From an uncultured bacterium (GTDB lineage Bacteria > Desulfobacterota_D > UBA1144 > Nemesobacterales > UBA2774), in assembly GCA_963825135.1 (NCBI GenBank), contig CAWGRW010000009.1, positions 768,001 through 832,000 of the forward strand: DNA of 64,000 bases, read 5' to 3'. A program made the translations under genes and the position numbers. The notes beneath the pieces are model-generated. The model did not search any database. It was given only the letters and a program-made list of their open reading frames with translations, and was not told the DNA's origin. This document shows positions 5,471 through 35,672 of the stretch, one piece after another; the stretch's first letter is position 1, and every line of letters starts with the position of its first letter.

Positions 5471-8203
5471 CTATGAGGATAAGGATTGCCGTAAGTATCT
5501 GCCGGTGTGAGATTTCCCGGACTTTGAGACCTCTTCCGGAGTCCCTGTGGCAATAACGTATCCCCCCTCGTCCCCGCCCTCGGGACCTAAGTCGAGCACA
5601 TGGTCCGCCGACTTTATTACGTCGAGGTTGTGCTCCACGACCAGCACGGTATTGCCCGCGAGAACGAGCTTGTTAATCACTTCGAGCAGCTTCCTGACGT
5701 CCTCTGCGTGAAGCCCGACTGTAGGCTCGTCGAGTATGTACAGTATGTCCTTGCCGCCTTTTCTCCCGAGCTCTCTGGCTATTTTTATCCTCTGGGCCTC
5801 CCCTCCCGAAAGCGTGGGGGCAGCCTGGCCGAGCCTTACGTAGCTCATGCCCACGTCCTGGAGTATCCGGAGCTTCCTGCCGATAGCCGGCACATCGTAA
5901 AAGAAATTAATAGCCTCGTTGACGGTGAGAGAAAGTATCTCGTCGATGTTCTTGTTCCTGAACTGTACCGAGAGCACCTCCTTGTTAAACCTCTTGCCCC
6001 CGCACTCCTCGCACGTAATGAACACGTCGGCCAGAAAGTGCATCTCTATCTGCTGAACGCCCTCGCCCTCACATGTCTCGCACCTGCCCCCCGGGACGTT
6101 GAATGAAAAATGGGACGGGGTAAGCCCCTTCGATTTCGCCTGCCAGGTCCCGGCCATCGCCTTTCTTATCTCGTCATACGCCTTGATATACGTTACGGGA
6201 TTAGACCTCGAGCTCTTCCCGATCGGGTTCTGATCGAGCATGATCACGTCCGACAAATACTCCGCACCCCTGATCTCCTTGTACCTGCCTACCCTCTCGA
6301 CCTCGCCCCTGAACTTTCTCGCAAGGGCCGAATAAATTACATCGTTCACAAGCGAGCTCTTCCCCGAGCCCGAAACCCCGGTTACGCAGACGAACGTCCT
6401 GAGCGGAAAGGAAACGGTCAGGTTTTTCAGGTTGTTCTCCTCCGCCCCGATGACGGTCAGCGATTTCCCGCTCCCCTTCCGTCTTTTAAGCGGGGCCTCT
6501 ATTTCCGTCTTCCCGGTTATATACCTCTTCGTGAGGGTCTCGACCGGGTTATCGAGCAGCTCTTTCACCTCACCCTGAAAGACGATATCCCCGCCCCTTT
6601 CGCCCGCGAGTGGACCGAGCTCGACTACGTGGTCGGCTGACCTTATCATCTCAAAATCGTGCTCGACCACGACGACCGTATTGTCCCTGTCCCTGAGCTC
6701 CCTGATGAGAGAGATGAGACGGTCGATGTCCCTGGGGTGAAGCCCGATCGACGGCTCGTCCATGATATAAAGCGTGTCCGTAAGCGTAGCCCCCAGCTGG
6801 CACGCGAGGTTCACCCGCTGCGCCTCGCCCCCGGACAGGGTCTTCGAAAGACGGGCGAGCGTGAGGTATTCGAGACCGACCTTGATCAGGAAATCTATCC
6901 TCGATCTAATCTGCTTTAAAATTTCGTGGGCGATGTTTCTTTCATACTCGCTGAGCGTAAGCTCTTCGAAGAACTTTCCGAGCCCGTCTATCGGCAAAAG
7001 CGAAAGCTCGAAGATATTCATGCCCCCTACCTTTACCCAGAGAGCCTCCTTGACGAGCCGCGATCCCCGGCAGTCATCGCACATGAACGCCGATCTGTAC
7101 TTACTGAGAAATACCCTCACGTGCATCTTGTAGTTTTTTTCCTCAAGGTGCCTGAAAATCCCTGCAACACCCGGAAATCCGCCCTCTCCTTCGAAGACGA
7201 GCTCTTTTTCCCTGTCCGTAAGCGCTTCATACGGCTTATCCGTATATATCCCCCTCTCCTCCGCGAAACGGAGGAGCTTTCTCATCTGGGGTTTCAGGGA
7301 CGGCTTGGTCAGGGGCTCTATTGCGCCTCCGGACAGGCTTTTCCCGGGATTCGGAACGACGAGGTCGGGGTCCAGACCGAGTATATTGCCGAACCCCTTG
7401 CAACCAGGACAGGCGCCCTGCGGGCTGTTGAAGGAAAAAAGGAGCGGAGTAGGCTCATTAAACTTCATATGACATTCGGGACATTCGAGGTCCGCCGAGT
7501 ACCTGAGAGTCTCGCCGCCGACTATGCGGACGTTCACATGCCTGCCCTCCTCAAAGGCGAGCTCGAGCGAGCCGACGATCCTGGAGCGGGATTTTTTCTC
7601 TATAACAAGCCTGTCGAGGACGATCTCCGAACCCTTCGGGACCTTCGGCAGGCCCTCGACCTCGATGATTTCGCCTGCTGTTATGATTCTCGTGAAGCCG
7701 TTAGATAACAGCTCGGCAGGGGTAAGATTTAGATTCCCGGGGGGGAACGTGATTAAAGCCCTTTTCCCCTCATGGTCGCTCAACAGTTCCCCGGCTATGT
7801 CCCCGGGGGACCTGTGCCTGACCTCCCTTCCGCATTCGGGGCAGAAGATCCTGCCGACTTTAGCAAAAAGGAGTCTCAGATAATCATATACTTCCGTGGT
7901 CGTCCCCACGGTCGAGCGCGAGTTCCTGACCGTATTCCTGCTCTCGATCGCGACTGCGGGAGGGAGCCCCGATATATCGTCCATATCCGGGCGGTCGACA
8001 CGCTCGAGGAACTGCCTCGCATAGGTCGACAAGCACTCGATGTACCTCCTGAGCCCCTCGGCGTAGAGCGTATCGAGGGCGAGCGAGGACTTTCCCGAGC
8101 CGCTCAATCCGGTTATAACCGTATATCTATGCCAGGGGATGGAAACGGTTACGTTCTTTAGGTTGTTCTCCCTGGCTCCCTCGATCCTTATCTCGCCTTT
8201 CAT
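5471..8203 (-). CDS. uvrA: Excinuclease ABC subunit A (possibly a secondary paralog)
   Basis: Two ABC ATPase modules (GLSGSGKSS, GVSGSGKSS, LSGGEAQR x2), zinc fingers, NSRSTVGT. Confidence 0.93.
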   Translation of the reverse strand: MKGEIRIEGARENNLKNVTVSIPWHRYTVITGLSGSGKSSLALDTLYAEGLRRYIECLSTYARQFLERVDRPDMDDISGLPPAVAIESRNTVRNSRSTVGTTTEVYDYLRLLFAKVGRIFCPECGREVRHRSPGDIAGELLSDHEGKRALITFPPGNLNLTPAELLSNGFTRIITAGEIIEVEGLPKVPKGSEIVLDRLVIEKKSRSRIVGSLELAFEEGRHVNVRIVGGETLRYSADLECPECHMKFNEPTPLLFSFNSPQGACPGCKGFGNILGLDPDLVVPNPGKSLSGGAIEPLTKPSLKPQMRKLLRFAEERGIYTDKPYEALTDREKELVFEGEGGFPGVAGIFRHLEEKNYKMHVRVFLSKYRSAFMCDDCRGSRLVKEALWVKVGGMNIFELSLLPIDGLGKFFEELTLSEYERNIAHEILKQIRSRIDFLIKVGLEYLTLARLSKTLSGGEAQRVNLACQLGATLTDTLYIMDEPSIGLHPRDIDRLISLIRELRDRDNTVVVVEHDFEMIRSADHVVELGPLAGERGGDIVFQGEVKELLDNPVETLTKRYITGKTEIEAPLKRRKGSGKSLTVIGAEENNLKNLTVSFPLRTFVCVTGVSGSGKSSLVNDVIYSALARKFRGEVERVGRYKEIRGAEYLSDVIMLDQNPIGKSSRSNPVTYIKAYDEIRKAMAGTWQAKSKGLTPSHFSFNVPGGRCETCEGEGVQQIEMHFLADVFITCEECGGKRFNKEVLSVQFRNKNIDEILSLTVNEAINFFYDVPAIGRKLRILQDVGMSYVRLGQAAPTLSGGEAQRIKIARELGRKGGKDILYILDEPTVGLHAEDVRKLLEVINKLVLAGNTVLVVEHNLDVIKSADHVLDLGPEGGDEGGYVIATGTPEEVSKSGKSHTGRYLRQSLSS

Positions 8204-8289
8204 GTCTATGCCGATGCCCTTAATCCGATTGTAAGTATGAATAGAAACCGGTCTACCCGGCGGGTCGTGATTACGGTAAATTCTTTGAA

Positions 8290-8997
8290 TTATTCGATCA
8301 GGCCGATTATTTCGGAGAGCTCGCTAACCTCTTTGACTTCGGTATCGTTGAATCTCTTAATTTTTCTGCCGTTATACCATATCACATCCGAGCCCGCATT
8401 TAACGCGCCCATGACGTCCGTCCCGTACATATCGCCCACATGCACCGCTTCACCCGTCGAAATCCCCATCCTGTCGGCGGCGAATTTGAATATGCGCGGG
8501 TCGGGTTTAATCATGTCCAGATTCGTCGAATCGAAAACGAAATCGAAATACTGCCTGATGCCGACTTCCTCGCATTTCTCCGCCGTATAGCCGTCGTTGT
8601 TGGAAATGACTGCGAGCATGTATCCCTTTCCCTTGAGGGAATCGAGCAGTTCCGCGGCGCCCGGCAGCAGGGACCTCGAAAAATCGATCTCGCTCATTAC
8701 CCTTCTTACTTCCTGACGGAATTTATCGATATCGAACGCAGGAGAAAGCGATTCATAGAGAATCGGGAAGAACCATTCACGGTGCTCCATCGGACTGATT
8801 CCGCCCCTCTCCTTGTGTTTTAAAAACAATTTATAGTCCGCTTTGACATACTCGGATTCAAATTCATTATCAGTAATATCGAAACCGGCCTTCCTCATCG
8901 CCATTGCGATTCTGAAGATAAAAGGCGGATCGGTCGATGCGAGCGTATCGCCGAAATCGAAGAAAAATGCTTTTTTGGTGCCCTGTCTGCTCTTCAT
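8290..8997 (-). CDS. HAD-superfamily hydrolase
   Basis: FFDFGDTL motif I, VISN, KPDPRIF, HVGD...DVMGA; start chosen at ATG 8997. Confidence 0.88.
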   Translation of the reverse strand: MKSRQGTKKAFFFDFGDTLASTDPPFIFRIAMAMRKAGFDITDNEFESEYVKADYKLFLKHKERGGISPMEHREWFFPILYESLSPAFDIDKFRQEVRRVMSEIDFSRSLLPGAAELLDSLKGKGYMLAVISNNDGYTAEKCEEVGIRQYFDFVFDSTNLDMIKPDPRIFKFAADRMGISTGEAVHVGDMYGTDVMGALNAGSDVIWYNGRKIKRFNDTEVKEVSELSEIIGLIE

Positions 8998-9228
8998 TTC
9001 CTCAAGGAAAAATTTTCGCCTGCCTCTCGCCTTCCGGCTACAGAAAATGATAGCATAACTGTAAAGTTCCACTAATCCCGATAATGGGGAAAATGAAATT
9101 GGTATTCTTTCGACCGCCTTTTTTCATTCCACCGGAAAGAAAATACTGTATTAATCGGAACGGTTCCGATAAGATTGTTTTTTTTCTTTGCAATGAAATC
9201 ACGGAGGTGTTAAAATATTTTTCCAATT

Positions 9229-10671
9229 ATGAGATGGTACTTAACTCCTATGCTCGCGGTCATGCTCGTCGCCGCTTCAATTCCGACAGCATCGTCAGCA
9301 ACCAGCACAGCCACCGCGTACTCAGCGAAAATTGAAACCCTGCTCCCCAAGGAAGCGAGGAACAACGGCAAACTCGGCGTCCTGGTCAAGTCCCTCACTT
9401 CCGGAGAAACGATCTACGAGCATAATGCGCAGAATCTGTTTATTCCCGCTTCGAATGAAAAAATTATCACCTCCGTCGCGTCTCTCTCGCTTTTGAAACG
9501 AGACTACAGGTTCAAAACCGAATTCTACAGCGGCGGCGGATTATCAAAGGGCGTACTCCACGGCGGCCTGTATGTCAAAGGTTACGGGGACCCTACCCTC
9601 GGTGAACCGCACCTCGGATTCATAGTATATGAAATCAAGAAACGGGGCATAAAGGAGATAAAGGACGGAATAACCGTCGACGACTCCTATTTCAGCGGGA
9701 CCAGGCGGGCGGAAGGATGGAAGGAGGAATGGACAGACGATTTTTACAGCCCCCCGATAAGCGCGCTGTCATTCAACTACAACACTATCGAAGTGAAGGT
9801 CACGGCTTCAAAATCGGGGCAGAAGCCGACTATAACAATTCTGCCCGAAGGTTCTAATATAGCTATCGTTAATGGTGCGGTGACGAGCTCAAAACAGGGA
9901 GTGCTCACGACGACATGGAAAGATGAACAGACGATAATCGTGGGCGGAAGAATCAGATCGAAAGCATCGGTGCTTCTCAAAATCCCCGTACAGAACCCAA
10001 CGCTTCTCACCGGCAATATATTGAAGAACGCTCTTGAGGAAGCCGGGGTCAAGGTTTCCGGACCCGTCGTTATGGGCGAGGTGCCGAAATGGGCCACCAT
10101 TTTCTTCACGCACTACTCAGACCCGCTCTCCTCGATTATCACGGAGTACCTTAAGAACAGCGTCAATATCATAGGTGAAAACCTTATTAAAACCCTCGCG
10201 GCTGAATTTAAAGGCGCGCCGGGGTCCTGGGAAAACGGTTCGTCCGTAATCTCGGAATTTTTAAACAGGATCGGCATCAAAGACGGATTCAGGGTAGTTG
10301 ACGGCTCAGGCCTGTCGCTGCTGAACCGCGTGTCGCCCGAGACCCTGACCGATGTACTGAGCTACGCTTATACGAACAGGGTCATAGCTTCCGACTTTAT
10401 AGATTCGCTTCCGATTGCAGGCGTGGACGGAACGCTGAAGAAGAGATTCAGGCAGTCGGATGTCCAGGGCAGAGTAATGGCGAAGACGGGCTATCTCAAC
10501 AACGTAAGGGCCCTTTCCGGTTACGTTTTCACAAAACAGGGGGATGTGCTGGTATTTTCGATACTCGATAACGGACTCGGGTGGAAGACAAAGGAATTCC
10601 AGAGCAATCTCCTTTCCGAACTCGTCGGATGCTGCGTGGCAGGGGCTATAGGCAATTCAACTGTTAATTAA
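9229..10671 (+). CDS. dacB: D-alanyl-D-alanine carboxypeptidase/endopeptidase (PBP4, peptidase S13)
   Basis: Signal peptide, PASNEK (SxxK), SVN, KTG, DGSGLS, GVDGTL motifs. Confidence 0.93.
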   Translation: MRWYLTPMLAVMLVAASIPTASSATSTATAYSAKIETLLPKEARNNGKLGVLVKSLTSGETIYEHNAQNLFIPASNEKIITSVASLSLLKRDYRFKTEFYSGGGLSKGVLHGGLYVKGYGDPTLGEPHLGFIVYEIKKRGIKEIKDGITVDDSYFSGTRRAEGWKEEWTDDFYSPPISALSFNYNTIEVKVTASKSGQKPTITILPEGSNIAIVNGAVTSSKQGVLTTTWKDEQTIIVGGRIRSKASVLLKIPVQNPTLLTGNILKNALEEAGVKVSGPVVMGEVPKWATIFFTHYSDPLSSIITEYLKNSVNIIGENLIKTLAAEFKGAPGSWENGSSVISEFLNRIGIKDGFRVVDGSGLSLLNRVSPETLTDVLSYAYTNRVIASDFIDSLPIAGVDGTLKKRFRQSDVQGRVMAKTGYLNNVRALSGYVFTKQGDVLVFSILDNGLGWKTKEFQSNLLSELVGCCVAGAIGNSTVN

Positions 10672-28847: not shown

Positions 28848-29690
28848 ATGAGAATAGCTATGACCCGATCCCTACGCGGCCGCGGAGATGTCCGCACGGA
28901 TAAAAAAAATATTTCTCGTAATCTAATATTCATCTTATTCGTCGTTCTGCTTATCCCGATTCCCGCGCATCCGATGAGCACGCCCCCCATGAGCAAAAAA
29001 GAGGAGGGCTCCTTTGTCGTCTCCGACAAGGAAGGGGGAACCAGATGGAAAGCGGACTGGACGAGTGAAGAAATCATCGAGAACGGGGAAACCAGAATAA
29101 AAACCGTAGTGCGCGGGCAGGGAATCAAAAACCCTTTTACGAGGGAGATGAGATGGGAGTCCGTATCCGAATGGAAATCGGGCGACTCATTTACTCCGGT
29201 CGTATCATCAACCGAGGTTAGAGATTTGCAGGGCAAGCTGGTCATGACTGACAGAACGACTGTTGATGAAAAGACCGGAGCCGCGTCGTTCATAAGAGAG
29301 GATTATGAAAGCAATGGGTCCGTCAGCAAAACTTACGAGACCGACAGTGACGTTCTGATCGTCGAAGGGCTCGCCCTCGCCCTCCGCTCGCTCCCTTTCG
29401 GCACCGACGACACGGTGAAGGCTCAGTTCCTGACCAACGAGCCCGAACTCTACAATGTCGAGTTCAAACAAAAGGGCGTTGAGACAATAAAGACAGCGGG
29501 CGGGGAGGTCGAATGTTACAAAGTCGAGCTTGTCCCCAAGCTGGGCGCCCTCAACGTATTCAAGGTGTTTTTCCCGAAGACGTACTTCTGGTTCACGGTT
29601 GCTCCCCCTCACAGGTGGGTCAGATACGATGGGTTCGAGAACGGGCGCAATTCACCCGAAGTCGTTATGCAAGCGGTGCCTGCGAATTAG
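28848..29690 (+). CDS. Exported beta-rich protein (DUF3108-like); start uncertain
   Basis: Signal-like hydrophobic stretch; ETIKTAGGEVECYKV motif typical of DUF3108/DUF6134-like proteins. Confidence 0.6.
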   Translation: MRIAMTRSLRGRGDVRTDKKNISRNLIFILFVVLLIPIPAHPMSTPPMSKKEEGSFVVSDKEGGTRWKADWTSEEIIENGETRIKTVVRGQGIKNPFTREMRWESVSEWKSGDSFTPVVSSTEVRDLQGKLVMTDRTTVDEKTGAASFIREDYESNGSVSKTYETDSDVLIVEGLALALRSLPFGTDDTVKAQFLTNEPELYNVEFKQKGVETIKTAGGEVECYKVELVPKLGALNVFKVFFPKTYFWFTVAPPHRWVRYDGFENGRNSPEVVMQAVPAN

Positions 29691-29721
29691 TACGGGAATC
29701 CAATGCACCACCCGCGCCGCC

Positions 29722-31089
29722 CTACTTCAAATTGCTTCCGTCGGCACAGAGCTGGGTGAGGATGCTGCAGGGTTTTTTGCTCCGGTTGCCGCACTCGTCC
29801 TTCGCCGCCTTTACAGCCTCGTCCATGTCGGCATAATAGCCCCATCCGAGAGCGCCGTCCTCACTCCTGGCTACGGCGCCGCAGTCTGTAAACGAAATCC
29901 TCATCTGACAGTTAGGCCCGTACTTCACGCACTCATCGACCGCCGCCTTTTCCGCCTGAACCCGCGTGGGATAGTTCCATGCCGTGCCGTATTGCCCGTT
30001 GTCGGCCGTGGCTATCGCCGCCCATACGTTCACCCGCTTTGTGCTTCCGTCCGAGCATAACTCTATGAACGAAGAGCATACGTCGTTGGTATACTTGTGA
30101 CATTCGCTGACCGCGTTGTTTCTCGCCAGATCGACGGTCGAGTTCGTCGCCCACCCGAAGGCCCCGTCCGGGGCCGTGGCATAAACAGCGCAGGTGTTAA
30201 ACGAGACTTTAATCTCACAGCCCGTATTGAACTGGCTGCACCTTTCGACGGCGTCTTTCTCGGCCGCCTGTTTCGAGGGCATGTTCGTCGAAAATCCATA
30301 TCCGCCGCTCGGCGAAACAGCTATAGATCCCCAGTTCCCTTCGTTGTCGTATGGACCGGGTGGGGACGGAGTATATACGGGGGGCCGGTAATCTTTGTCA
30401 TCGCCGATTATCTTATGGGGTTGATCGTTCTTCTCTCCGTCCTTACCCCCACCGCCGAAAATCAGATAACCGGCCAGTCCTAAAACCACTACTACAGCAA
30501 TTAAACCCCCGAGTTTCTTTTTATCGCCGAGGAAAGACCTTCCGCCGGAATAATCCTTCTTTTCGAGCGGCCTTATGGTTTCCATACGCTGATCCGGTCC
30601 CTGATCGGCTTTTGCCGAACCGGATTGGGACGCCCCGCTTATCCCGGCGGCATTATCATCGGCTTCGGACTCGACGCGCGCTCCCATTCTCGAAAGCAGG
30701 AGCTTGATAGTCGACAGCAGCTGTGCAAGGTGTTTTTCGAGCGGCGGGGTTAGAGCGTCGAGCCAATGCGGAGCGCTTATAAAGTATTCGAGGGATTTAT
30801 TGGGATCGACGTCCTCCACCCTGAACGGAATGACCGGTATGCCTTTGCTTACCGCACGCTCGACTTCCCTGATTATTTGCTGGGACTCATTGGCGTTGGA
30901 CGAGAACACGAGGACCATCACCCGGCTTGAGCTTATGGCGTCGATAATCGCCTCGCCCCACTGCGTGCCGGGCACTATGTCCCTGGGGGCAATCCAGCAT
31001 CTGACGCCGCCTTTTTCCAGAGTCGCGCATACTGCGTCCGCAACGGGTTTGTCTTTCGCCGAGTGACTGATAAAAACATCGTGAGCCAT
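29722..31089 (-). CDS. TIR domain - TM - 2x DUF4189-like membrane protein
   Basis: DVFISHS..D, WIAPRDI.PG, IIREVERA (catalytic Glu position); TM LGGLIAVVVVLGLAGYLIF; two ~97-aa repeats (WGSIAV.../WAAIAT...) with 6 Cys each, ending CSDGS/CADGS. Confidence 0.88.
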   Translation of the reverse strand: MAHDVFISHSAKDKPVADAVCATLEKGGVRCWIAPRDIVPGTQWGEAIIDAISSSRVMVLVFSSNANESQQIIREVERAVSKGIPVIPFRVEDVDPNKSLEYFISAPHWLDALTPPLEKHLAQLLSTIKLLLSRMGARVESEADDNAAGISGASQSGSAKADQGPDQRMETIRPLEKKDYSGGRSFLGDKKKLGGLIAVVVVLGLAGYLIFGGGGKDGEKNDQPHKIIGDDKDYRPPVYTPSPPGPYDNEGNWGSIAVSPSGGYGFSTNMPSKQAAEKDAVERCSQFNTGCEIKVSFNTCAVYATAPDGAFGWATNSTVDLARNNAVSECHKYTNDVCSSFIELCSDGSTKRVNVWAAIATADNGQYGTAWNYPTRVQAEKAAVDECVKYGPNCQMRISFTDCGAVARSEDGALGWGYYADMDEAVKAAKDECGNRSKKPCSILTQLCADGSNLK

Positions 31090-31143
31090 GTATTTTTCCC
31101 CTCTCCTCCAGACGAAATTCTTGAGGATTATAGCTGTGATTGA

Positions 31144-32928
31144 CTACCCAGGCAACACCAAACGCTTGGATTGAAAAACTATTCTCCAGTCCAGGTTTTC
31201 AGAGGTCATAATCTCCGCCGTATTTTCAGCGATGAAGCCGAGAAGCCGGTAGGAGGGAACGAAGTCCGCCTTATCGAGCTCGTTCCTCAGATTCTCCAGA
31301 TGTGCGCTCATGGCATCCGACCTCTTCGCTATGAGCTCGAATTCCCCCTGTGTCCTGATGCTATAGAATGCCGCTCCCAATGCGGGGAAAATAGCGGCGC
31401 AGATCGTGAGCCAGTCCTTGTGAAAATACAGATGGGAAAGGCATGCTATAACCGTGAGCACGAATAGCGCGGAGCCGATGATATGCAGTGTGTCATGGAT
31501 CCTGTGGAAACGGGGAGAGTTGCGCTTGTGATAATTAATCTGCCCGGTGATCTCCTGCTCCGACAAAAAGGCCCTGTATGATCCGAGGTATCCGGCGTCT
31601 ATCTTCGCTTCCACCAATCCGGCCTCCCGAACCACCGCCCTGAAGTGCCAGTTCACCCAGGAGTTCCTGGGGTCTCCGTACGTATCGTGGGCCGGCACCC
31701 TGAACGCCGGCGTCGTCAGACCGAGCGGTGCAAGAAATCTGAGCTGTCTCAGCTGTTCGGACAGGAGCCTGTAATCGATCCACCTCTCGTGCCATCGTTT
31801 TATATTCCCGATGACGGTGATCATTATTATCAGCAGGATCAGAGCGAGCTCGCATGATATCCACAGGTCCTCAAATCTCGTTACAGTCGGAAGCAGCGCG
31901 AAAAAGACCGCCAGCCCGGCCAGCAGGTAGTTAGCCAGAAAGGAGCTCCTGTAAATATTTGAATAGTAATTCGCGAGCTTGTCGGCCCAGGTATAATGCG
32001 TAAGGAATTTTTCGTTTATCTGCTCCTTCACGGAAAGCGGAAAGTCAGGACACGAATCCCATTTCATCCGCCATTCTTCTATTGTCGCTTCATCGAAATT
32101 CCTGACGCTCGCGCCCCCCGTATCTATCCGTTCTCCCGCGAATACATCGCAGAAAGTTTCAAATAGGAATCCCCAAGTCCAGGAAGGCTGTCTTTCCTGA
32201 AAATACGTCCTGCTGAGGTCGGGTCTCCGGGGGGACAGGTGTTTTAAAACCCTCTTCAGCCGCAGCTCGAGCTCGCGCACGCCCACTTTTCTAAACCCTT
32301 CGTATTCTCCGCCCATAAGGACGCTCATATCGTGCGGGGCCGCGGAGTTTATCCAGACCACTGGTATTTCGTTAATGAGCGCTTCCTTCACCACCTGACC
32401 CGTACCCCCCTTCCCTTTCGCGTCCTCCCCGTCCCATATAGCGATCAGCACGTCGCTCTGTGCGAGCACCATGCGTCCTACGGCCTGATAGGACTCGTTC
32501 TCGGCCTCGGGCGTCGATCTCGAACCGTCGAGCTCAAATACGGAGGTGGCTTTGGCGAGCATCGCCCTGTAGTTCTCGATTGACGCGCCGTCCGCAAAAT
32601 CCTTTTCATATTCATAACGGCTGAAAGGAAGCGCACACTGAAGCTCATATCCTTCCTTAAGCGCCTCCTCGGCGACAAGCATGTCGGCCCCCTCTGCGAG
32701 AGGAGATATTACCCTCAGCGCAGGGGGTCCGCCGTCGGCATAGAGGGACTCGGAAGACGACTTTACCTCGTTCGCGACTCCACTTATATGTCTCAGGACT
32801 TCATTGATGCGCGTCCCCAGCATCCCGGTGTCCGCATTCTCGAGTCCGGCGGGACGGTGACCCGTGACGCCGACCCTGACTGCGAGGCGGGCTTTCGGGG
32901 GAGATTTCAATTTCATGCCGGCGTTCAT
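31144..32928 (-). CDS. SLOG (YpsA-like) + tandem SLATT/DUF4231-like membrane effector
   Basis: VGVTGHR, SPLAEGAD, AIWDG..GKGGT SLOG motifs; two 2-TM modules with ADKLANYY, WIDYRLLSEQLR, QINYH, ENLDW. Confidence 0.8.
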   Translation of the reverse strand: MNAGMKLKSPPKARLAVRVGVTGHRPAGLENADTGMLGTRINEVLRHISGVANEVKSSSESLYADGGPPALRVISPLAEGADMLVAEEALKEGYELQCALPFSRYEYEKDFADGASIENYRAMLAKATSVFELDGSRSTPEAENESYQAVGRMVLAQSDVLIAIWDGEDAKGKGGTGQVVKEALINEIPVVWINSAAPHDMSVLMGGEYEGFRKVGVRELELRLKRVLKHLSPRRPDLSRTYFQERQPSWTWGFLFETFCDVFAGERIDTGGASVRNFDEATIEEWRMKWDSCPDFPLSVKEQINEKFLTHYTWADKLANYYSNIYRSSFLANYLLAGLAVFFALLPTVTRFEDLWISCELALILLIIMITVIGNIKRWHERWIDYRLLSEQLRQLRFLAPLGLTTPAFRVPAHDTYGDPRNSWVNWHFRAVVREAGLVEAKIDAGYLGSYRAFLSEQEITGQINYHKRNSPRFHRIHDTLHIIGSALFVLTVIACLSHLYFHKDWLTICAAIFPALGAAFYSIRTQGEFELIAKRSDAMSAHLENLRNELDKADFVPSYRLLGFIAENTAEIMTSENLDWRIVFQSKRLVLPG

Positions 32929-32934
32929 AGCATT

Positions 32935-34788
32935 TTATCCTTTGGGCACCTCTATAGGCACATTCCTGTGAGTCCAGAGCCAGTCGCTGTTCTCAAGAAG
33001 CGCTTCCCTGCCGACCGCGACGAGAACCCTCTCTGCAGGCACTTTCCCTATTTCCAGCTCTCTCCTCGCGGAAGCATAAGTTTGCTGGGCCAGGCTGTAT
33101 CTCCTCTCAAGCTCGTCATAAGCCCTCTTGCTTTTATACGCCTGGGCGGCAACACCCACGGCGGCAATGGCTCCTAAAAGAATCTGAAAATCATTTATAG
33201 CATTGTTGTTACCGACCCCCGCGATCACTACGTACACTCCATACACGAGAGCGATCAGGAGAGTAAACACAAAGGACAGGAAAGTGATATTGCCGAACTG
33301 CCGGGACATGGCCAGGAGCGGTCTTTTTTTTGACCTGAAATAATCGAGCTGAGATTCAATCCAGAGCCTTTTGGTAATATCCAGGAATTGAGCATTCTGC
33401 CGTACCGGTTTAGCGCCGCCGGCTCTCAATGTCATGATCTCGACGCTTCTCACGGCCTTTCTTATCCATGTCAGCAAACCCTCATATTTACTCAGGTAAT
33501 GCGAGGATACGTTCTCGTTTATCCCGGAGAGCGTCCAAAAAAACTGGACCCTGAGGCCCTCCGCGAGCGCCCTGTAGTCGAGGAAGCGGTCCTCTATCCT
33601 TTCCCTCGAGGTCTTTTTCACCAGGAGCGCTATTGCGGGGATGAGACCGATGTAAAACAGAACCAGATAAGAACTCATATCGATCAGCCCGTACAGTACG
33701 ACGGCTATAAAAAATAGTACGTATATCCAGTTGACGAGTCTCGCGGTTTTTTTTTGATAGAACTGCGATAAAACGTCCGCCCCGGAGTAAAGGCGCATAA
33801 TTTTCCCGAGCGTCTCATCCCCCGATATGAGCTCGTTATCATACTCGTCCTGTAACAAATACTTCATGGATTTAACGAGCTCTTTATCACCGTGATCGTC
33901 GAGATAATTTTTTATATCGAGATTAAAACCCTCGATCCTCTCGACGATGCCTATGAAGGGCGTGTGTTCATATCTGTCCCCGGTATCCGCTCCGGCGCGC
34001 TTAAAAAAACGGTCATATAGATTATCGAGGGTATTGCTCACCGATTGAACAAGGCTGAAAAATTTCCGGGAGGCGGCCCTGAGCACGGCGCTCGGAATTC
34101 CGAATTGCCTTCCGGAGACGTTGAGCTCTGCCGAGGAATCTTCCTCGTAAGGAACGGATTCCGCCCTGCTCCGGCGGGTCTGCGGATTTATCGTTATAAT
34201 CATGCTCTTGTCCATATTATCGAGACCGGTCTTATTCTCCCTGAGAGAGTATTCCCGCGTTATGCTGCCTTCGCGTATCCACTTTATTATCTGCGCAGTC
34301 GTATCAGGCTCTTCCATATCGTCATCGGCACATATCGCAAAAAGGATTTCGCTGTGTTCGGCAATAAAGGCGGCGGCGAATCTCTCGGTCAACGCCTGAT
34401 CCCCTATTAAGCCGTCTCTCTCCCCTCCAAGTCGTGATCTAATTTGGGACGAGATGTCTATAGATGACTCGGCCTGTCCGAGAACCCGCCTGAAATCCTC
34501 CCCGTTTTCATCGTCCGCGAGCGCATTTTCATAGCGCCCGAGCGGCATAGGGAGTATCGCAATAAGTCTCGCGTTTAGGTGCTCAATCGCAAGCCTCGCC
34601 GTCAGACGCTCCTCGCTCTCGGCGAGAGAGGATATAACGACGAACGGTGAGTTGGGAAAAGTATTGCGGAGCCGGACCATCTCGGAGATTATAAGACCCG
34701 AGATGCTCTCCTCTTCGGCAATATCGCCTTTCCGGCTGCTCACGCCAATAACAATCGGGATTAGGTAGTCTTCGCTTATCGGTGGCAT
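32935..34788 (-). CDS. Degenerate SLOG + tandem SLATT/DUF4231-like membrane protein
   Basis: Same architecture as the adjacent gene (IGVSSRK, SSLAESEE, ILPM; ADVLSQFY, FLDYRALAEGLR, QLDYF, ENSDW). Confidence 0.75.
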   Translation of the reverse strand: MPPISEDYLIPIVIGVSSRKGDIAEEESISGLIISEMVRLRNTFPNSPFVVISSLAESEERLTARLAIEHLNARLIAILPMPLGRYENALADDENGEDFRRVLGQAESSIDISSQIRSRLGGERDGLIGDQALTERFAAAFIAEHSEILFAICADDDMEEPDTTAQIIKWIREGSITREYSLRENKTGLDNMDKSMIITINPQTRRSRAESVPYEEDSSAELNVSGRQFGIPSAVLRAASRKFFSLVQSVSNTLDNLYDRFFKRAGADTGDRYEHTPFIGIVERIEGFNLDIKNYLDDHGDKELVKSMKYLLQDEYDNELISGDETLGKIMRLYSGADVLSQFYQKKTARLVNWIYVLFFIAVVLYGLIDMSSYLVLFYIGLIPAIALLVKKTSRERIEDRFLDYRALAEGLRVQFFWTLSGINENVSSHYLSKYEGLLTWIRKAVRSVEIMTLRAGGAKPVRQNAQFLDITKRLWIESQLDYFRSKKRPLLAMSRQFGNITFLSFVFTLLIALVYGVYVVIAGVGNNNAINDFQILLGAIAAVGVAAQAYKSKRAYDELERRYSLAQQTYASARRELEIGKVPAERVLVAVGREALLENSDWLWTHRNVPIEVPKG

Positions 34789-35273
34789 GTTCGGGTTTCA
34801 CTGCACATACAGCATCTTACTCCGCGTAACCGGTATCCGTGCGGAAGAAATCAGGCCCGCGAAACCCCAGGCTGGCACTGCCCGGGCGTTGCGAATATCT
34901 CCGGTAACCGTATCGATCTCTTCCATGAATATACGATTGAGCGCTTTAAAGGGCTCAGAACGTCCCGGATTGCGGGAACAGCCCCTCATAGTTTTATGAC
35001 CCATCGTAAACAGATCCCATATATGACCCGGCGATATAACAATTCTAATAATGCGGGAGTAATAATTCAATAACTCCGCAAAGTCGATTGAGATGCGGGT
35101 TCAGGCGATGGGGTATATCACGGTACTGTTTCTTGAACGGTCCCGGATACGACGGGAGCAATAATCGCGATATCAATATTCCTGTTGCGAAAATCGACTC
35201 TCACCGTATATAATTGAATGACTTACGAATCGTGAAGCCGTAAAAGACCATAAAGTCCGGAGGAATCACCGTT

Positions 35274-35672
35274 ATGAAAAAGCAGAAGCTCATGATCCTG
35301 GTACTGTTGGCAGCATGCCCGTTCATATTGACAGGATGCCTGGCCGCCGCCGCCGTAGGCGGGGCCGCCGCCGCCGGAGCAGGTACGGTAGCGTATATAA
35401 AAGGCGAATTGAAGGCCACTGAAGAAGCGACTCTGAACAAGACATGGCAAGCGACGGTCGCCGCGATAGACGGACTCCAGTTTCTGGTCGTCAATAAGAT
35501 AAAGGACAACGTCTCGGCGGAGCTCGAAGCGAAAACCGCCGATAACAAGACCGTGAAGATACAGCTCAAGAGAGTCACCGACAACCTCACCGACATATCT
35601 ATCAGGATCGGCACGTTCGGCGATGAAAGCCTTTCCCGCTATATACTCAGCAAGATAGAGGCCAAGCTCTAG
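35274..35672 (+). CDS. DUF3568-family lipoprotein
   Basis: Lipobox LTGC, Ala/Gly-rich helix, SIRIGTFGDE. Confidence 0.8.
   Translation: MKKQKLMILVLLAACPFILTGCLAAAAVGGAAAAGAGTVAYIKGELKATEEATLNKTWQATVAAIDGLQFLVVNKIKDNVSAELEAKTADNKTVKIQLKRVTDNLTDISIRIGTFGDESLSRYILSKIEAKL

Follow-up and report, generated by a model that had tools for sequence, protein, structure and literature searches.

A putative transmembrane TIR receptor with a duplicated DUF4189 ectodomain, encoded beside SLOG-SLATT genes in an uncultured bacterium

We describe a three-gene cluster in a 64,000-nucleotide stretch of DNA (the window: positions 768,001 to 832,000 of the forward strand of contig CAWGRW010000009.1, assembly GCA_963825135.1) from an uncultured bacterium of the lineage Desulfobacterota_D, UBA1144, Nemesobacterales, UBA2774. 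The genes lie on the minus strand in the order N2, N1 and TIR receptor, with 6 nt between N2 and N1, 54 nt between N1 and the TIR gene, and the TIR gene last. The receptor joins a TIR domain to two DUF4189 repeats through a single transmembrane (TM) helix. N1 is a membrane protein with one SLOG and two SLATT domains, predicted to be a signal-gated pore effector, and N2 is its paralogue. We believe that the receptor probably relays information from the envelope to an effector that breaches the membrane.

Architecture and topology of the receptor

The receptor gene (29722..31089, minus strand, stop codon included) was delimited from the list of open reading frames (ORFs), its translation and Pfam matches. 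It encodes 455 residues and begins with an ATG that is preceded by a good ribosome-binding site, GGAGGAGAGGGG. The coordinates of its parts, given below, are likewise on the minus strand.

The cytoplasmic TIR domain occupies aa 1-131 (30697..31089) and contains Box 2 (R36-D37-x-x-P40-G41), S69, Gln71 and Glu75. It belongs to Pfam TIR_2 (PF13676), which matched aa 5-124 with an E value of 8.4e-23 and 81.6 bits against a cut-off of 28; Pfam TIR (PF01582) also matched (6.5e-9). In the structural model the domain has a TIR fold, with Foldseek matches to PdTIR, TIR-STING, MAL, RUN1 and AbTir at E values of 5e-5 to 5e-4. An earlier note on this DNA, made from the sequence alone, had seen a TIR at about aa 1-130 with a glutamate in the motif IIREVERA; this residue is the invariant Glu75. 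The TIR is followed by a variable, low-complexity linker (aa 132-192; 30514..30696) with 46% mean identity and low predicted local distance difference test (pLDDT) values. The linker ends in KKK, and the sequence D-K-K-K directly precedes the TM helix (aa 193-211; 30457..30513). The 19-residue Kyte-Doolittle mean exceeds 1.6 only from aa 191-198 onward and peaks at 2.54 over aa 193-211, so that this is the sole segment above 1.6 and coincides to the nucleotide with the 19-residue helix of the earlier note. Beyond it lies a Gly/Pro-rich periplasmic stalk (aa 212-250; 30340..30456) of sequence DYRPPVYTPSPPGPYDNEGN, again with low pLDDT and with 40% mean identity. The low-complexity linker and the Pro-rich stalk had also been named earlier, and both are present.

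The rest of the protein consists of DUF4189 repeat 1 (aa 251-352; 30034..30339) and repeat 2 (aa 353-455; 29725..30033). Pfam DUF4189 (PF13827) matched in two stretches, the first at aa 253-345, with an E value of 1.5e-40 and 138 bits against a cut-off of 25. The repeats are 36% identical over 100 residues without gaps (E 2e-25), and each has six cysteines (284, 291, 300, 330, 338 and 345; 387, 394, 403, 433, 441 and 448), as the earlier note had proposed for two homologous DUF4189-like repeats. All 12 cysteines are invariant in the 17 aligned full-length relatives. Repeat 2 matched the solved DUF4189 protein Rv1813c (7nhz) by sequence (E 7.4e-5), and the AlphaFold model matched the same structure by fold (Foldseek E 3.5e-4, root-mean-square deviation (rmsd) 4.0 over 104 columns), which places the ectodomain in the DUF4189 family. 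An AlphaFold model of the ectodomain was a check that the earlier note had proposed; it gave a pLDDT of 80-92 (80-90 for repeat 1) and an Rv1813c-like fold, compared with 50-78 for the TIR and less than 50 for aa 136-239.

About 21 full-length protein clusters contain the receptor, at 57-96% identity, and its architecture is far beyond chance. The ratio of nonsynonymous to synonymous substitution rates (dN/dS), computed for each segment from nine receptor orthologues, showed purifying selection throughout: 0.017 for the TIR, 0.24 for the linker, 0.38 for the TM helix, 0.24 for the stalk, 0.09 for DUF4189 repeat 1 and 0.12 for repeat 2. The TIR (aa 1-131) was nearly invariant among relatives whose ectodomains share just 57-86% identity. 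The linker, helix and stalk were weakly conserved (40-52% identity).

The topology of the receptor is well supported by its sequence as N-in, C-out, with the TIR in the cytoplasm and the repeats in the periplasm. The protein has a single TM helix, and it has no N-terminal signal peptide because the TIR begins at residue 1. Five Lys and Arg residues occur in the 15 residues before the helix, against three after it. The same bias was found in 62 single-TM members of the TIR family, where the mean number of Lys and Arg was 2.89 before the helix and 1.66 after it (more on the N-terminal side in 41, equal in 14, fewer in seven); these proteins are related, and the p-value of the bias is therefore overstated. 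DUF4189 proteins are reported to be periplasmic or secreted and to contain three disulfides (XAC2611 preprint, 10.64898/2026.05.09.723464). Genes for a VKOR homologue and for two DsbA-like thioredoxins are present in the genome (94% complete), and a search of it for DsbB gave no match. The earlier suggestions of a cytoplasmic TIR, under the positive-inside rule, and of periplasmic repeats that could be disulfide-bonded both agree with these findings.

As the linker, TM helix and stalk are variable and largely modelled as disordered, the receptor seems better suited to activation by proximity or clustering than to a rigid conformational relay. Clustering-driven activation of the TIR is plausible on the basis of this model.

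Two observations concern the surroundings of the receptor gene. A DUF3108 protein (28848-29690, plus strand) is encoded convergently, at a distance of 31 nt from the stop of the TIR gene, and is syntenic in all four related loci. A scan for promoters and terminators over 29400-35400 was uninformative, with five promoter-like sites (4.4 expected) and 11 terminator-like sites (6.0 expected).

The partner genes and the TIR active site

N1 (31144..32928, minus strand) encodes 594 residues and was assigned from NCBIfam and Pfam matches and from four hydrophobic helices. NCBIfam SLATT_1 matched it in two stretches with 58.7 bits against a cut-off of 41, and Pfam DUF4231 also matched. The helices form two pairs (aa 331 and 355, aa 480 and 506), in keeping with tandem two-TM SLATT domains at about aa 308-399 and 460-581 (31186..32007, minus strand). 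For the N-terminal domains of N1 and N2, Pfam searched up to E 10 gave nothing meaningful, and neither did a sequence search of the Protein Data Bank with the SLOG profile. The predicted fold of N1 aa 1-222 (32263..32928, minus strand) was confident (pLDDT 88.2), and in this model the region has the fold of an SLOG domain. Its best structural match was YpsA (2nx2; match values 4.1e-8 and 18.3; rmsd 2.3 over 158 residues), and it also matched, with the same two values, DprA (2.5e-5, 13.5), ShosA (7.0e-5, 12.2), LOG (3.6e-3, 11.3) and the SLOG domain of BcThsA, which binds 3'cADPR (1.3e-3, 8.2). The Rossmann-like fold and the Gly-rich nucleotide loop assign the domain to the YpsA-like branch of the SLOG superfamily, and its motifs are TGHR, EGAD, LP, DF, WDG and GGT.

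N2 (32935..34788, minus strand) is a 617-aa paralogue of N1 with a degenerate SLOG domain (SLOG profile 3e-53) and an SLATT-like C-terminal half. The SLATT_1 score of N2 was 23.8, under the cut-off of 41, and its DUF4231 match was weak as well. The motifs TGHR, EGAD, WDG and GGT were kept in 20 of 20 N1-type rows of the alignment and lost in three of three N2-type rows, namely N2 itself, L003:1860-3713 and L005:4224-6125. By its sequence, N2 looks like a lineage-specific duplicate of the SLOG-2xSLATT effector that may serve as a ligand-blind partner subunit. When a phage collection was searched with N1, it gave just a DprA-like SLOG protein in one Streptomyces phage.

Does the receptor TIR have the residues of an enzyme? 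Glu75 lies within helix 70-81 of the model (the start of helix alpha-C), after strand 57-62. It is invariant in 17 of 17 full-length relatives and in 32 of 32 TIR domains from many phyla, and it aligns with the glutamates of the TLR (Toll-like receptor) 'YEL' and TIR-STING 'FEM' motifs. From the shared S-x-W-x-x-x-E motif, we infer that Glu75 is equivalent to RUN1 E100 and AbTir E208. The TIR thus carries a glutamate at the catalytic position, as expected of an enzyme that cleaves nicotinamide adenine dinucleotide (a NADase), and such activity is predicted for it.

The residue four positions before Glu75 points in another direction. An aromatic residue at this position (AbTir W204) was reported in 12 of 12 TIRs that produce cyclic ADP-ribose (cADPR) and is required for cyclisation (10.1101/2022.05.07.491051). 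The receptor TIR has Gln71 there, which is invariant in the alignment of 17 relatives, at least 90% conserved across the 32 TIR domains, and aligned with the Trp of TLR2, TLR6 and TIR-STING. As a glutamine replaces the aromatic residue of cyclase-type TIRs, a cADPR-type or other cyclic signal is doubtful. The sequence leaves room for a linear or new NAD product, or for a non-enzymatic scaffold mode. If the TIR is an enzyme, its Gln-for-Trp active site predicts a product unlike the known cADPR isomers.

The TIR also resembles those of animals. Its BB loop (P35-R36-D37-I-V-P40-G41) contains the Box 2 motif RDxxPG, and R36 and D37 are invariant in 32 of 32 domains. This motif is found in the TIRs of TLRs, IL-1R, TIRAP and MyD88 and is said to be typically absent from prokaryotic TIRs (PMC7075850). 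When the profile of this prokaryotic TIR family was compared with solved structures, animal TIRs outscored bacterial ones: oyster TIR-STING gave 9.6e-10, Hydra TRR-2 3.4e-8, and TLR6, TLR2 and TLR1 6.5e-6 to 8e-5, compared with 2.1e-4 for bacterial Cat1 and 1.7e-3 for PdTIR. It is possible that the TIR-TM family is the closest prokaryotic relative of the animal TLR TIRs. The residues H108-W109-L110-D111 are also invariant.

These features raise the question of whether the TIR is a non-enzymatic assembly scaffold, as in animal TLRs. In that case, clustered TIRs would directly bind either the SLOG domain of N1, which is related to them in structure, or a further TIR protein, and the SLATT pore would be gated by protein contact instead of a diffusible messenger. 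The animal-type Box 2, the ranking of animal structures ahead of PdTIR and the glutamine in place of the active-site aromatic all fit such a role. So do the extremely strong conservation across the TIR surface (dN/dS 0.017), which suits several binding interfaces, the presence of all partners in one membrane, and a second TIR_2 protein in the genome. A scaffold would leave the invariance of Glu75 at the catalytic position (32 of 32) unexplained, however, and YpsA-clade SLOG domains are known as small-molecule sensors (PMC9503650). Direct contact between TIR and SLOG domains is known in no system. We regard a pure scaffold as improbable.

Distribution of the TIR family and its pairing with SLOG-SLATT genes

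In the host genome, the TIR-family profile found one place and the SLOG profile two, and all three are in this cluster. The second TIR_2 protein of the genome is of a different family and lies on another contig (C7:5616-5897, plus strand, 57.4 bits, in an open frame of 245 aa), and there is a weak third TIR_2 match at C10:167979-168317 (plus strand). It is possible that these other TIR_2 proteins are partners of the receptor if its TIR acts as a scaffold.

Of 41 related genomes, 12 contained the ectodomain, and the same 12 contained N1, adjacent to it on the same contigs. Both were present in eight of the nine other genomes of the genus and in all three from a second genus. Searches of other genera yielded only a single distant N1-like gene and a single small free DUF4189 ORF. 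Because these genomes are kin, their co-occurrence amounts to co-inheritance and not to independent association.

Pairing outside the lineage provides evidence that is independent in this respect. A scan of species-representative genomes with the receptor alignment had at least 596 confirmed stretches, of which 80 loci were kept. Four of these are the same receptor in Dadabacteria/Thermodesulfobacteriota metagenome-assembled genomes (MAGs), and 76 are outside the lineage. A homologue of N1 or N2 was encoded within 8 kb in 18 of the 76, from Acidobacteriota, Chloroflexota, Armatimonadota, Gemmatimonadota and one Methanobacteriota archaeon; for 10 of these 18 loci the two genes share a strand and are separated by less than about 100 nt. 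As a control, eight other genes of the window matched zero to two of the same 76 loci. In the reverse scan with N1, which kept 78 loci, a TIR of this family occurred within 6 kb in 27. When 45 of the 194 ORFs neighbouring the remaining N1 homologues were scanned with Pfam, seven proved to be other TIR_2 proteins (TIR-NB-ARC, TIR-PNP, DUF4062-TIR, TIR-SPOR, TIR-TPR and two plain ones), and nSTAND1 NTPases were also among them. The core pairing of a TIR with an SLOG-2xSLATT protein is recurrent across phyla and not universal, and its sensing part varies.

Some of these loci have features of their own. In six of six Acidobacteriaceae loci tested (L092, L094, L096, L110, L117 and L121, at about 7790-9880), a conserved TrkA_N (NAD-binding/RCK) protein of about 680-710 aa is encoded after the N1 homologue in the same orientation, and it may be a second, channel-type output. 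In the related loci L098, L111, L112, L132 and L138, a TIR-TM gene is convergent just past the TrkA_N protein. In the archaeal locus (L081, in a Methanobacteriota MAG, 8001-10481), a 273-aa TIR of the family that has two hydrophobic segments is encoded immediately next to an N1 homologue and convergent with it; provided that the binning is right, the pairing is not confined to bacteria. On plasmid pSBC2-4 of Caballeronia sp. SBC2 (L161, 7046-14446), the genes encode, in this order, an N1 homologue (32% identity, 96% coverage), a soluble TIR protein and an nSTAND1-WD40 NTPase. The plasmid is mobilizable, and the system offers a cultured, tractable relative with a cytoplasmic sensor.

The receptor is one member of a very large class of proteins made of a TIR, a TM segment and a variable outer domain. 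A protein search with the receptor found at least 5178 proteins at E<=0.001 among 8000 scored, and TIRs from many phyla were 60-73% identical to that of the window. At least one hydrophobic segment follows the TIR in 71 of the 77 complete proteins from the 80 loci. The C-terminal domains of the family include FGE-sulfatase, trypsin, caspase with DUF4384, PQQ propeller, BioY, DUF4190, TPR, DUF4185, Sel1, MFS and BNR/sortilin. The class is apparently undescribed: a word search of the literature, whose coverage was incomplete, found no paper on receptor-like bacterial TIR proteins.

This range of outer domains bears on where the signal is sensed. It could be argued that the TIR works from inside, like ThsB of Thoeris, with the TIR or the linker sensing a cytoplasmic cue such as a phage protein, and that the TM helix and the DUF4189 pair only anchor the protein or position it beside the SLATT effectors. 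Known Thoeris TIRs are reported to sense infection in the cytoplasm (10.64898/2025.12.03.692087), the Caballeronia system combines a soluble TIR with a cytoplasmic STAND NTPase, and purifying selection acts on the ectodomain, with nothing to suggest that it diversifies. However, the TM helix alone would do as an anchor. Moreover, the outer domains have been swapped freely (DUF4185, Sel1, TPR, a BNR/sortilin propeller, FGE-sulfatase, trypsin, caspase, a PQQ propeller) over a TIR that is nearly unchanged, which is the pattern of a variable sensor and not of a mere anchor. Sensing from inside therefore seems unlikely to us.

A model for envelope signalling and its relation to known systems

Based on these results, we propose a model in which an envelope-facing sensor clusters its TIRs, the TIRs make an NAD-derived signal, an SLOG domain reads it and a SLATT pore opens, much as in Thoeris type VII. 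We give this sequence of events an even chance of being right. The earlier note had spoken of Toll-like-receptor logic and of a TIR that is activated by ligand-induced clustering and depletes NAD+. The membrane TIR and its outer domain bear out the first part as a design, although the domain order is reversed and leucine-rich repeats (LRRs) are lacking. As to the second part, the architecture and topology stand and clustering is plausible, but the note had overlooked the two SLOG-2xSLATT genes upstream, so a self-contained NAD-depleting TIR is probably an incomplete account. With these genes, the module reads as a signal-and-effector system of the Thoeris kind.

We infer the functional steps as follows. 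The receptor would hold its TIR in the cytoplasm on a flexible tether, cross the inner membrane by one helix and display a disulfide-bonded DUF4189 pair on a Pro-rich stalk in the periplasm. An envelope-side ligand may bind this pair and gather receptor molecules. Candidate ligands are an invader's protein (for example part of a phage or the tip of a secretion system) and an exposed or damaged component of the envelope; one DUF4189 protein is reported to bind VirB5, the tip protein of a type IV secretion system (T4SS), in the periplasm (10.64898/2026.05.09.723464). The tethered TIRs would then assemble into an active oligomer and turn NAD+ into a small molecule derived from ADP-ribose, which the YpsA-like SLOG domain of N1 could read. 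This step has a precedent in the literature, in that YpsA-clade SLOG domains are described as sensing cADPR variants and SLATT is predicted to be a membrane effector gated by ADP-ribose derivatives (PMC9503650). Finally, the two SLATT domains of N1, probably together with the ligand-blind N2, would open or disrupt the inner membrane, and the attacked cell would arrest its growth or die.

Besides the glutamine at the cyclisation position, several observations weigh against this model. PADLOC gave weak, TIR-level matches for the receptor only and has no model that matches N1 or N2. No homologue of N1 or N2 lies within 8 kb in 58 of the 80 TIR-family loci, and at least 44 of the 78 N1-homologue loci show no nearby TIR, given that 45 of the 194 neighbouring ORFs were scanned. 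The flanks are of a housekeeping kind (an SDF symporter, a Zn peptidase, Diphthami_syn_2, a methyltransferase, a thioesterase, SnoaL and DUF924) and syntenic in relatives; they do not resemble a defence island or a mobile context, and no mobile-element genes occur in the flanks examined. Last, the purifying selection on the ectodomain (dN/dS 0.09-0.12) is unlike that of a receptor in a fast arms race. On these values we reject such a race for the ectodomain, and they suggest that its ligand is conserved.

The unpaired loci would be expected if the TIR were itself the effector, so that ligand-induced clustering depletes NAD+ and the SLOG-SLATT genes are separate or accessory. Many bacterial TIRs are indeed NAD+-depleting effectors, and 58 of 80 is a large share. 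On the other hand, the three genes are co-inherited in the lineage and are the sole copies in the genome, the pairing recurs in other phyla, and a pore domain that carries an intact SLOG sensor must have some signal to respond to. We think it very unlikely that the TIR acts alone.

The flanks, in turn, could mean that the module serves a resident function in envelope-state or cell-cell signalling (envelope stress, kin recognition or programmed lysis) and not immunity. Synteny is kept across two genera at 57-86% identity, the module is present in a single copy, and the selection on the ectodomain and the lack of mobile-element genes in the flanks are equally in keeping with such a role. However, the TIR + SLATT and TIR + SLOG systems tested so far are anti-phage, homologous pairs occur on a mobilizable plasmid and beside STAND NTPases and an integrase, and the module was not found in the family's other genera, as far as these were searched, a patchy distribution of the kind seen for accessory genes. 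A purely non-immune role has, in our view, only a slim chance of being correct.

Returning to the model of an envelope-facing sensor, we suggest tentatively a wider version of it. Bacteria and some archaea may possess an undescribed class of true transmembrane TIR receptors, which combine a near-invariant N-terminal TIR that has the animal Box 2 with one TM segment and an exchangeable outer domain, and which signal inward. A subset of them would gate SLOG-SLATT pores. As glutamine replaces the cyclisation residue, they might do so through a non-cyclic or new NAD-derived signal or through direct contact between TIR and SLOG.

The bacterial TIR systems known so far, such as Thoeris, CBASS-TIR, SPARTA and Avs, sense disturbances in the cell interior. 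A TIR sensor facing the periplasm would allow a cell to react before or while an invader (a phage tail, the tip of a secretion system or a toxin) crosses the envelope. Sensing the outside through a TIR is the design principle of animal TLRs, and the literature searched contained no demonstration of it in bacteria. The family also presents many outer domains on the same conserved TIR, a ready-made set for domain swaps, and an SLOG and double-SLATT effector with a ligand-blind paralogue is a simple model for SLATT pores opened by nucleotides. Burroughs, Aravind and colleagues reportedly predicted SLOG-SLATT and TIR-SLATT conflict systems, with the logic of a nucleotide-gated pore, in NAR in 2015. 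Summaries of that work describe SLATT as the SLOG/SMODS-associated two-TM effector and mention predicted TIR-SLATT neighbourhoods (PMC9503650, PMC7159879). The YpsA paper (PMC6459960) mentions neither SLATT nor TIR.

The ectodomain can be compared with XAC2611 (Tpf) of Xanthomonas citri and Rv1813c of Mycobacterium tuberculosis, which are reported to share its Cys-rich fold, with three conserved disulfides, and to be extracytoplasmic. Those proteins are small and free and have signal peptides, whereas the receptor carries two copies, joined to a TIR by a TM helix. We considered whether the DUF4189 pair is a guard against the cell's own X-T4SS, as XAC2611 is, and rejected this: a search of the genome (94% complete) for the VirB4 family (PF03135) of T4SS found no member, and the domain forms part of a TIR protein.

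The receptor shares with animal TLRs and Hydra TRR-2 a single-pass design, a cytoplasmic TIR, an outer recognition domain and the Box 2 motif RDxxPG. Unlike in those receptors, its TIR is N-terminal (N-in, C-out, and not the type I topology of TLRs) and it has no LRRs. With the domain order reversed and LRRs lacking, the likeness to TLRs is one of design only and not of shared architectural ancestry. Animal TLRs also differ in their output, which passes through a MyD88-like adaptor pathway that is not known here, where the output is probably a nucleotide signal and a pore.

Thoeris systems in general are operons of a TIR gene and an effector with a signal-binding domain, and the cluster has this form, with the SLOG and SLATT domains of N1. 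In Thoeris type I, the ThsB TIR is paired with the SIR2-SLOG protein ThsA, whose SLOG domain reads 3'cADPR; in type VII, ThsB is paired with the SLATT effector ThsH, and the signal is canonical cADPR (10.64898/2025.12.03.692087). The module resembles type VII in that the TIR gene stands beside a SLATT membrane effector, and the expected logic is the same: an NAD derivative made by the TIR would open a membrane-breaching protein. It differs from type VII in that the TIR protein is membrane-bound with a periplasmic DUF4189 pair and is not a soluble ThsB. The effector differs too, if ThsH and N1 are compared by description only, for a YpsA-like SLOG domain stands at its N-terminus, ahead of two SLATT domains, and it is encoded as a pair of paralogues, of which one has a dead SLOG. 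Further differences are the glutamine at the cyclisation position and a context that is not a defence island. Judged by analogy of the effector domain, the known system to which the module appears closest is Thoeris type VII.

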